Positions 99-47,756 of a stretch of 64,000 nucleotides of DNA are shown piece by piece. Each line of letters opens with the position of its first letter. The first letter of the stretch is position 1. Origin of the DNA: Eledone cirrhosa (Eukaryota); the NCBI GenBank assembly GCA_964016885.1, contig OZ024749.1:48298001-48362000 (forward strand), read 5' to 3'. Position numbers and translations under genes: made by a program. Below the pieces are notes generated by a model, which searched no databases, was not told where the DNA came from, and saw only the letters and a list, made by a program, of their open reading frames with translations.

Positions 99-480
99 TT
101 AAGTATGATTTAGCTTGGGTTGGAATTTATCAATAAAGCTATTTTCTTTAATTTTTCAATTAATTTCACTCGGGCTGTGTAGTTTGTAGAAAGGAAATAT
201 AAATATTTTCTGACCACATGTTGCTAGATGGTTACTCTGGGGTATATGACGGACATTTTGGGTCTCTGATTTGCTGCAGGTGCAGCCGTGCACGTTCCGA
301 TAGTGCATTTCCAGTTTGACCGACATATAGTTCTTCATAATTCGGGCATTTAATGCAGTAAATTAGATTTCTGCTTTTGCAGTTCATATTTCATTTAGGA
401 ATATTTTTCTAGTTTTTGTGTTCATATATTGACCAGTATGTATGAACAGACATGTACCAAATCGACTATCCTTGCATTTA
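99..480 (-). pseudogene. PLE GIY-YIG endonuclease domain (frameshifted)
   Basis: Manual translation of ~390-255 gives NMNCKSRNLIYCIKCPNYEELYVGQTGNALSERARLHLQQI (LIY...YVG = GIY-YIG, with conserved R and H). The degenerate Cys linker CKDSRFGTC lies upstream. Confidence 0.88.
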
Positions 481-991
481 GATACAGTGAATGATTGCTC
501 TTTGCTGTTAAGGTCAAACTTTGACTTTGTTAGTAATTGCTTCACATTTTTCGGCTGTCTTTTACTAAGAATCAAACCTCGGTATTTGATTAAACCTTTT
601 AATTCAATACTTTGAGCAATGATCGGTAGGTTTGCTTTGGCAGTGTTGAAGATATTCTGGTGAAATCGGTTGTGTCATTATACATGGTATGACCAGTTCT
701 TGGTTTCTTCTTCCTTGGGTTGTCCTACGTGGTTGTATAGGTATTTTTATAGCCCGCTGTATGCCATTTTCTATAAGTAGAGATGGGTATTTTCGTTTGC
801 ACAAAAATCCTCTCAGTTCTGTTAGGCGTTTGTTCCTGGTATTCGTATCTTCTACAATGGTACACATTCTTCTGGCTAGGCAGTATGGGATGTTCCGCTT
901 TGTAAGAGGTGGATGGCACGACTTTAAATTCAGATATTGATGAGTGTCTGTGTGTTTATAGTATATATATGTGGTAATGGTGGTGTGGTTT

Positions 992-1177
992 TGGATTGGC
1001 AGTATTGCTAGAGGGTCGGACGTCATGCTTTGACGCATAGAGTTACATTCCTTTCCGTTCTGAGTTCAAATCCCGCCGAGGACAACTTTGCCTTTCATCC
1101 TTACGGGTCGATAAAATAAAGTACCAGTAATGTACTAGGTTATTTTATGGCCTTGTGCCAAAAGTAGAAACAATTAT
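992..1177 (+). mobile_element. tRNA-derived SINE (octopus-type) nested in the PLE RT gene
   Basis: A-box-like TGGCAGTATTG, B-box GAGTTCAAATCCC, central block GCCTTTCATCCTTAC(G)GGGTCGATAAAATAAAGTACCAGT and tail GGCCTTGTGCCAAAAGTAGAAACAATTAT. It separates FLDI from NHTTITT of the PLE, and many copies occur in the window. Confidence 0.9.
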
Positions 1178-2290
1178 ATCTAGGAATGTTAATTTGGTAC
1201 TACTCATCTCTTTTGTAAATTGGAGAGATGGGTGTAGGTTATTCAGGAGGATATTGAACTCATCCAGAGTATCTAGAGATTCTGTCCAGATGATGAAACA
1301 GTCGTCAATGTATCTCTTCCAAGACTTGTTAATGTACTTTCTAAATTCAGTGCTATATTTTTCCTCTATTTCTTGGTAGAGTTGTTGTTCTAAATATCCC
1401 ATTACAGAGTTCTCGTAAACGGGAGCAAACTTCGTTCCCATCGCTGTGCCTCTAATTTGGATGTAATTATTTCCATTGAAGAAGAAAGTGTTGTTTTCCA
1501 GAATAAGTCTGACGACGTCTAATATAAATGGCACTGTGAATCTGGTGGGAATCAATTCTCTATGTTTTTCCACACAGTATTTAACCGCCTTTATTCCTAA
1601 ATCATGTGTAATGTTGGTGTAAAGACTTACCACATCAGAACTAAGTAGAAGTGAATTCGTTTCCGTGGTTTTAGGATGATGCACCAGGAAGTCCATATCA
1701 TCTCGGATGAAACAGGGTATGTGAATACATAGTGGTTTCAAAATAATGTCAACAAAATTGCTTAGACGGTGGGTAGGTTATGTTGGACCAACAATAATAG
1801 GTCTAAGTTTTAAGTCTTTGGGGTGTAGTAATTTAATGTACTCACTCTTTTGTTCTTTTACTGCCAGTTGGATTTCTTTTGACTTATGCATGTTTGGTAA
1901 TCCAAAAAGTTGCTGGGTTTGGGCTCAAAATAGGTGATGTAGTCTCTTTCATTATCAGTAAGTGAGTTGAAGCCAGGTTTTGAAGCCCGGTTGTTGATCT
2001 TCTTCATGATGTTGTGGTCTATATTTGACGGTATTTCATGGTAGAATGTTGTGTCTTTCAGTTGTTCCACAACCAAATCTTTGTAGTATTCAGCATCCAT
2101 TATAAGGATTGCACCCTCTTTATCTGCTTGCTTAATTATTATTGGTCTATCATTTTGTATACGTTTAAGTGCATACATTTCCGATTTGTTAATGTTTGGC
2201 CTAACAATAGTATTACGTCTAAGAGGAAATTTAGACAGGATAGCAATGAATTGGTCAATATAGATATTTCTTCCTTTTGGCGGAGTGAAA
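1178..2290 (-). pseudogene. PLE reverse transcriptase domain (frameshifted)
   Basis: ORFs 1145-1741 and 1858-2322 contain RT motifs A (DVVSLYTNI), B (GTAMG) and C (YIDD); frameshifts lie between the pieces. Confidence 0.92.
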
Positions 2291-2349
2291 TGGTAATAAA
2301 AAAACGACACCACCATTAACACGGATATATACTATAAACACACAGACAC

Positions 2350-2353: not shown

Positions 2354-2384
<31 letters not shown>

Positions 2385-2510
2385 AAGTTTTATTTAAATT
2401 GTTGGGTTACAACGAGTAAATATTTATAACTGATATAAAAGCACTCAACAAGTATTTGGAGTATATTTACGATATTAAATAAATGGAAACTATATTTATA
2501 AAACCATATT

Positions 2511-2576
2511 TATATCATTATATATATTTCGGGGATATCATATAAAAAATATGGTATGCCTTCATCAGACAAAATA
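2511..2576 (-). ncRNA. Minimal type-I hammerhead ribozyme motif (mirror copy)
   Basis: Reverse complement reads TATTTTGT-CTGATGA-AGGCATACCATAT..ATATGATATCCCC-GAAA-TATATA-TA-ATGATATA. Confidence 0.75.
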
Positions 2577-2664
2577 CAATATAAACAGTCTTATAAATAG
2601 ATAGATTTGACATACCTTACAACTTCAACTTCCATTTAAAAAGTGTATAAGACTGTTTATATTG

Positions 2665-2730
2665 TATTTTGTCTGATGAAGGCATACCATATTTTTAATA
2701 TGATATCCCTGAAATATATATAATGAAATA
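2665..2730 (+). ncRNA. Minimal type-I hammerhead ribozyme motif
   Basis: Stem I TATTTTGT/ATGAAATA; CTGATGA 2673-2679; stem II AGGCATACCATAT..ATATGATATCCCT; GAAA 2711-2714; short stem III T-ATAT-A; UH = TA 2721-2722. Confidence 0.78.
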
Positions 2731-2770
2731 AATATGGTTTTATAAATATAGTTTCCATTTATTTAATATC

Positions 2771-2820
<50 letters not shown>

Positions 2821-46982: not shown

Positions 46983-47108
46983 GTGTGTGTGTGTGTGTGG
47001 GTGTGTGGGTGTGCGTGCGTAAGCGTGTATATATATATGTATGTGTATGCATGTGTCCATGTGTGTGTAGCGGAAAAGAGTGCTTATCCAATATATATAT
47101 ATATATAA

Positions 47109-47756
<648 letters not shown>

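Follow-up and report, generated by a model that had tools for sequence, protein, structure and literature searches.

Judged by its sequence, the insert at 2382-2773 of the window (the whole 64,000-nt stretch of Eledone cirrhosa DNA analysed here) is two partial, 5'-truncated copies of the non-coding 5' leader of a Penelope-like element (PLE) of the Hydra clade, placed head to head in (TA)n. It is likely that this arrangement arose by two reverse transcription events, with products that would then have been joined head to head. The start site of each event would be a fixed one, located immediately ahead of a conserved stem-loop on which the reverse transcriptase (RT) would dock. The insert is ordinary in itself and is a new family member within a known clade.

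Architecture of the insert

An earlier note on this DNA had described a ~390-bp insert between TA tracts, and this is borne out: 2382-2773 is bounded by (TA)n target tracts at 2352-2381 on the left and 2772-2820 on the right. The inverted arms, at 2462-2595 and 2646-2779, are 134 nt long, 97% complementary and 50 nt apart; once the TA-like overlap is subtracted about 128 nt remain, which is the ~128 bp that had been claimed. The insert is asymmetric. Its left arm, on the minus strand, has an additional tail of ~85 nt (2382-2468) and 49 nt more 5' sequence (2596-2644), the latter being the 5' part of the leader, found in the tail-bearing arm only and ending 12 nt before a putative, initiator-like run-off site. 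This arm differs from young copies at three positions, two of which weaken its ribozyme. The inverted short arm (2646-2773, plus strand) ends at the short end, start site 1, and is 100% identical to young copies. The arms meet at a head-to-head junction (2644-2646) that contains one extra base and is unique among the 83 fold-backs.

The tail is the interval between two fixed 3' ends, with 2382 as the tail end (start site 2). On the minus strand, a TA-like tract at start site 1 (2463-2469) is the candidate primer-annealing site, and a bulged stem-loop, module 1 (ACUC..UU-GAGU-GCU), occupies 2440-2462; this is the motif of the clade-wide test described below. Module 2 is missing from the window insert because the copy stops just before it. 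In copies that retain the template context, the tail sequence runs on into the leader and the ORF. In copies that end at start site 1, a target T replaces the template A at one position.

Two other stretches of the window contain PLE sequence. An older cluster at 47108-47600 belongs to a sister subfamily and repeats the fold-back design, a tail arm facing an inverted short arm, together with a third arm that has the short end; its stem II carries compensatory changes. At ~130-2331 (minus strand) lies a decayed PLE of another clade (DKEG, YIDD, CxxC; RVT_1 E 1e-5) with stops and frameshifts, split by a ~190-bp high-copy SINE-like repeat at ~992-1190. This broken neighbor was considered as the parent of the insert and rejected: its clade and motifs are different, and it is not common to the other copies.

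The parent element

A DNA search of the animal's own 3.0-Gb genome gave 971 candidates, 40 of which were scored; these have fixed ends in (TA)n and variable centers. Longer stretches led to a 3870-nt unit consisting of a leader, an ORF, a ~1.3-kb 3' UTR and a pLTR. Copies of the parent are found at L042, L151, L152, L154 and L159; of five copies that were translated, four have an intact ORF of 740-742 aa, and L151, L152, L154 and L159 are the loci with intact ORFs. On sequence grounds, it is near certain that the parent of the insert is an autonomous Hydra-clade PLE. The earlier note had proposed a PLE origin with an inverted 5' pLTR copy, had placed the target in (TA)n, and had suggested a search for attachment of the arm to a PLE ORF. 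All three proposals hold up: the ends of the insert are the same as those of the 3.87-kb ORF-bearing element, exact junctions of element end and TA are found, and the arms trace to the 3870-nt unit with its intact ORFs.

The parent ORF appears to encode an RT with a C-terminal GIY-YIG-type endonuclease (EN) of the Hydra clade, as judged from its motifs and a by-eye match to Fig. S7 of PMC8557442. YRDD and Y..YxG..R..H..E..N are invariant or nearly so in 97 homologues; DKT is found at 118-120; RWR is present at 37-39, where 20 of the 97 homologues have RWR and 74 have RWK. The cysteine motifs are C601/C603/C609 (CxCx5C), C699/C702/E705 (CxxC before E) and N717/C726/H728 (CxH after N). Besides DKT, RW(K/R) and CxCx5C/CxxC/CxH, the family has the insertion into (TA)n, the hammerhead ribozyme (HHR) in the pLTR and the tandem and inverted 5' partial copies that characterize Hydra elements. 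Searches of Pfam and of PDB sequences with the parent ORF gave no match.

The published Hydra elements, for example Hydra-1_Obim and Penelope-13_HM, are described as having a single ORF for RT and C-terminal EN, as the parent appears to have, and share with it DKT, RW(K/R), YRDD, CxCx5C, CxxC and CxH, together with a pLTR HHR with palindromic stem III and a (TA)n target (Craig et al. 2021, PMC8557442). In Penelope-13_HM an inverted 5' copy, with HHRs on the two strands as in the window insert, was already known. Hydra-1_Obim is a different family from the parent, with different HHR stems. At 3.87 kb, including the ~1.3-kb 3' UTR, the parent exceeds the <3 kb given for the clade, a length that is a tendency and not strict, and its ~85-nt tail compares with the 30-40 bp quoted for PLEs (PMC8557442). 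At least four more Hydra-type families, each with HHR stems of its own, are present in this genome (L258 and L265, family B; L312-L322, family E; L018 and L329, family C; and L011), with 1551 exact matches for the family B tail motif and 3159 for the family C end motif.

Two fixed ends and their pairing

Exact element-TA junctions in the animal's own genome number at least 872 for the tail end and 2160 for the short end, the latter including older subfamilies, and 0 for controls with reversed patterns. The fixed ends of the two arms sit about 85 nt apart. At the positions found on contig C1, 29 of 47 tail ends have a short end in head-to-head orientation no more than 10 kb away, and among the positions listed there are no tail-tail pairs for 100 tail ends and no short-short pairs for 100 short ends. 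Ninety of 100 listed tail-anchored inserts, ordered by position, were examined (the 30 that come first, and 60 from the 70 that remain). The partner is an inverted short end in 58, a tail in none and another end in one; 15 have no called partner, although six of these show a short-end stub, and 16 fall in an unresolved class. Eleven of 20 long inserts could be resolved, and nine of these are mixed, three of them in reversed roles, with the long copy at the short end; the exceptions are L142, which is tail-tail, and L156, which ends at an intermediate site. In several long copies (L114, L118 and L137) the 5' ends lie exactly at start site 1, and the tail therefore appears at both ends. Families B and E repeat the short-plus-tail pattern, the E sample being biased in that it was chosen by fold-back similarity. 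Short-plus-tail pairing is near-strict.

One pair of loci 84 kb apart (L002 and L003, G000:C10) has the same insert with the same flanks, which is a local segmental duplication. Penelope-like elements are the closest relatives of telomerase RT. At family B tail ends (L254, L261, L262, L272 and L274) there is often a (CT)n stutter between the element and (TA)n, which looks like a repeated, telomerase-like copying of the first template bases.

A bulged stem-loop behind both ends

In template-context copies, each fixed end is followed by a TA-like tract and RCUCC-N-GAGYGCU. The corresponding bulged stem-loop (RCUC..UH-GAGY-RCU) lies past both sites in families A, B and E and past site 1 in family C. 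Family B has both modules, yet the A-B flanks align no better than shuffles. When family E was searched with the 5' half of the motif only, 11 of 12 matches were leaders, and the 3' half was present in 10 of those 11. The stem-loop can also be seen by eye in published Hydra consensi from a sea cucumber (twice in one leader), a coral and a sea louse; its tandem form is visible in File S7 of PMC8557442, and a word search of the main text found no mention of it.

A broader test used marine metagenomes. A first scan with a single protein query found nothing. The set that was then assembled comprised 78 loci, of which the 60 with a match starting near the N-terminus were tested; 56 had enough upstream DNA. 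A pattern that set only the basal helix and the 3' triplet found the stem-loop in 40 of these 56 Hydra-type leaders, and twice in 24, as against 1 in antisense, 2 within ORFs and a mean of 0.62 in shuffles. The upper stem pairs solely in the register with a 2-nt bulge: its three pairs form in 85, 64 and 59 of the 89 metagenome modules compared with 64, 38 and 35 when shuffled, and 0 of 1000 shuffles, which ignore relatedness, were as good. Element ends were sought at 35 metagenome loci, 27 of which aligned and 17 of which had sequence beyond the match; with one tandem left out, 16 ends remain, of which 10 lie 0-6 nt ahead of a module, three more do so by eye and three do not.

It has been suggested (PMC8557442) that the endonuclease produces such ends by resolving intermediates of integration at a motif in the DNA; the ends would then not reflect RT starts on RNA. 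The motif can indeed be read as DNA, and the tail of the Drosophila virilis element is needed for EN recognition, as cited in PMC11167929. However, its covariation is that of a bulged helix within a single strand, it occurs strand-specifically, with 89 sense and 7 antisense occurrences, and the tail ends of Poseidon_Ac matched RT starts in vitro (PMC11167929), so that resolution by the endonuclease is very improbable. Tail-end copies could also have been primed in transcribed (UA)n without module 2.

Hairpin stability of the modules is nothing unusual (z about 0), which is compatible with a protein-bound motif but is no proof of one. Kissing of two modules through a palindrome was also considered and dropped, as 78 of the 89 metagenome modules end in a non-palindromic variant. 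The stem-loop has no match in Rfam, and no mention of it was found in the literature searched or in the Craig main text; relevant statements may exist in papers under subscription, in notes of Repbase and in supplementary files, namely those of PMC11167929, PMC4209133 and PMC3846280 and of the bioRxiv preprint cited below. Within the scope of these searches, the duplicated stem-loop and the proposed fixed twin priming are what is new here.

The 5' ends of the arms

Among 130 arm ends, 25 lie within 3 nt of the A of a TTCA that is located ~90 nt upstream of the hammerhead core, compared with 5 in the preceding 20 nt. In family B, 14 of 47 ends are at that family's own TTCA, and family E seems, by eye, to behave likewise. 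The sequence TTCA(C/T)(T/A) matches the initiator consensus, BBCABW. Because the ends cluster at this initiator-like site, we infer run-off at an RNA start; that is, the RNA would begin at TTCA, and the arms that end there would have been copied to the end of the template. An initiator and a DPE have been described in the pLTR (PMC2377424), and an Inr-like TCACT in rotifer Penelope work (PMC3846280). Cleavage by the HHR as the usual source of the 5' end was ruled out, since only 5 of the 130 ends are near the cut. The cut site is crossed by 118 of the 130 arms, which would mostly have been copied through an uncut ribozyme.

Families A and E have a splice-donor-like site (2604-2618, minus strand; L313) 41 nt past the putative RNA start, and families B and E have acceptor-like sites directly before the AUG. 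An intronic leader, like that of the Penelope of D. virilis, is possible. Splicing at the donor-like site was seen in 0 of 189 matches in the fetched loci, duplicates included. The contigs of four runs of unknown kind contained no joints, a result that has no bearing on expression, splicing or editing.

Origin of the two arms

Two observations bear on how the arms were made. First, in 23 of the 58 inserts with a short partner each arm has sequence that is missing from the other, and two of these have no overlap at all. Fold-back copying is excluded in these 23 because each arm contains sequence that the other lacks. In the remaining 35, the window copy among them, the short arm is nested in the tail arm or lies within 15 nt of its 5' end, which is non-discriminating. 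Second, the source variants of the two arms are the same. Among 37 inserts with an arm overlap of 160 nt, 80 subfamily marker sites agree, and the sole recurrent disagreement is the primer-site position (36 inserts). In addition, seven private variants are common to both arms, with 0 of 2000 permutations as close. Gene conversion following insertion could also have made the arms identical, as could the use of two RNAs transcribed from the same locus.

Such findings have to be compared with the self-priming proposed for rotifer Penelopes (PMC3846280), in which a local palindrome would let a single cDNA, or else an antisense template, fold back on itself and be copied. Self-priming accounts for the identical variants, fits the 35 nested or nearly nested inserts and is in keeping with the microhomology at the junctions, which amounts to at least 2 nt in 28 of 46 flush junctions (null mean 10.9, maximum 22); inserted bases are present at 19 of 65 junctions. 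However, the 23 inserts with arm-specific sequence on both sides refute it as the general route, and it offers no reason for the constant position of the second arm's end, immediately ahead of a conserved stem-loop. Self-priming is consequently considered improbable.

A different idea is that a non-autonomous ribozyme element, retrozyme-like or SINE-like, moves independently by means of the PLE enzyme, either as the fold-back or as the short leader; the earlier note had likewise proposed an ORF-less, retrozyme-like unit. Short copies are abundant, with a median of 424 bp, and start at the putative RNA start; given an internal promoter like that of the D. virilis Penelope (PMC2377424), they could be transcribed. 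Moreover, two unusual types of junction are each shared by 2-3 unrelated loci, and one insert copies a source with four private changes. The insert also resembles the non-LTR retrozymes (bioRxiv 10.64898/2026.07.22.740005) in being pLTR-derived, with a type-I HHR and no ORF. However, those elements are defined by tandem HHR units, and within the partial family sample neither tandem HHR repeats nor mobilization as a unit of its own was found; the insert has no tandem array, only a head-to-head pair made at integration. Its ends belong to the autonomous element. Furthermore, the 83 fold-backs have 72 junction types, and all seven marker haplotypes of short copies recur in longer copies in that sample, none being confined to short copies; therefore, the hairpin does not travel as a unit. 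An independent ribozyme element is thus unlikely, and the retrozyme-like unit is not upheld. Fold-backs are mostly formed anew at each insertion, and the hairpin is a by-product of integration.

The hammerhead ribozymes

A full minimal type-I HHR had been claimed for each arm. CUGAUGA, GAAA, the palindromic AUAUAUAU stem III and the AUA triplet are indeed present in both, but the left copy is weakened, with the first pair of stem II broken and stem I cut down from 7 to 4 bp. The hammerhead of the inverted short arm (2666-2729, plus strand) has its core at 2673-2679 and GAAA at 2711-2714, and the predicted cut after 2722 agrees with the position given in the earlier note. In the tail-bearing arm (2512-2575, minus strand), the core is at 2568-2562 and GAAA at 2530-2527, and the cut is predicted between 2519 and 2518.

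Core conservation, which the earlier note had offered as a check, was examined in 20 copies chosen from 166 motif hits to cover sister families. The core is invariant except at N7 and for one A9 change. In this alignment, 89% of stem cells are paired versus 33-48% for slid controls, a comparison that ignores relatedness, and two-sided changes occur at 15 of 19 stem pairs, with stems I and II covarying. Judged from these alignments, the motif match is not due to chance. A scan of Rfam gave no hammerhead match and only hairpin-driven miRNA look-alikes far under gathering scores; the hammerhead call is based on motif and covariation because Rfam gives it no score. In the energy model, the active monomer fold lies 5.1 kcal above the MFE, and a double hammerhead (-15.6) is better than two monomers (-13.2), but the best cofold is at -19.3. 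These calculations disfavor the active monomer and weakly allow a dimer. The minimal hammerhead is genuine, as judged by motif and covariation, and would probably work as a dimer.

Stem III (window 2673-2729) is (AU)4, identical in sequence to the target; this is common to all the octopod-type families found here, whereas the metagenome relatives differ. In L273 of family B, both arms start exactly at the predicted HHR cut+1, a possible fossil of cleavage in vivo.

It had also been proposed that the fold-back acts as a switch between self-cleavage and dsRNA processing by ADAR or Dicer. A transcript of either strand is predicted by the energy model to fold as a ~190 kcal/mol hairpin that conceals the ribozyme, and PLEs are targets of small RNA in a rotifer (PMC3846280). 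Against selection for a switch, however, arm length and junction vary freely among inserts, and the left ribozyme of the window already has weakening changes. The switch is unsupported and can hardly be entertained; in a short fold-back, the ribozyme is a passenger and is predicted to be locked within the hairpin.

Relation to known systems

Much of this architecture has been published before. PMC8557442 describes (TA)n targeting, HHRs located in pLTRs, 5' copies in inverted orientation and a tail that is confined to one end. Cervera and de la Pena (PMC4209133) reported dual minimal HHRs on opposite strands, 100-700 bp apart, which is the architecture described in the earlier note, and assigned such pairs to truncated PLEs. 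The object singled out by the earlier note is therefore a known by-product. The description in PMC4209133, as far as that source goes, is without mechanism or end polarity, and the stem II of the present hammerheads is long and contains a C.C mismatch that is conserved.

The closest mechanistic precedent is Poseidon_Ac (Frangieh et al. 2024, PMC11167929), in which, as here, two internal RT starts bound the tail and uncut RNA is the main template; both target strands are cut and extended, and a dimer is predicted. The Poseidon_Ac starts are inside the ORF, at an AC-rich stem loop, and are without target homology, whereas those of the present family are in the leader at TA-like tracts. In addition, no strand preference was seen in the Poseidon_Ac work, whereas here each start precedes a duplicated stem-loop, with one start per insert end.

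In the twin priming of L1, the RNA is primed from both strands of the target, which leaves the 5' part inverted and microhomology at the junctions; the site of the second priming varies, and there is no overlap between the two parts. In contrast, both sites are fixed in the present family, and the two cDNAs usually copy the same stretch.

A model for tails and inverted ends

Taken together, these results, all of them genomic, make the following model of two fixed starts the likely one. The endonuclease of the element would nick both strands of the self-complementary (TA)n, and each target 3' end would anneal to the short UA-like tract ahead of one stem-loop. Two subunits of the RT, which probably form a dimer on a single RNA, would dock at the tandem stem-loops and copy toward the 5' end of the RNA, usually across the uncut ribozyme. 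The two cDNA ends would then be joined through microhomology or a short fill-in, and a short fold-back would be the abortive product of such leader priming. Docking, the dimer, the use of a single RNA, the RNA start and cleavage are the parts of this scheme that are read from sequence patterns.

The origin of PLE tails and inverted terminal repeats has been named an open question (PMC8557442). Slightly more likely than not is a clade-wide version of the model, in which a tandem stem-loop places two RTs at two fixed sites of one RNA, one for each strand of (TA)n; the tail would then be the spacing of the stem-loops, and inverted pLTRs would be programmed twin priming. The family of the window insert offers a testable answer to this question, given an RNA motif open to mutation, intact ORFs suited to expression in a family that is young, and a defined target, and it yields sharp predictions, namely one start site per target strand and run-off at the RNA 5' end. 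The stem-loop would mark the boundaries of Hydra elements in annotation. Furthermore, if the model is true, the stem-loop pair would be a portable cis-signal for the targeted insertion of any upstream RNA.
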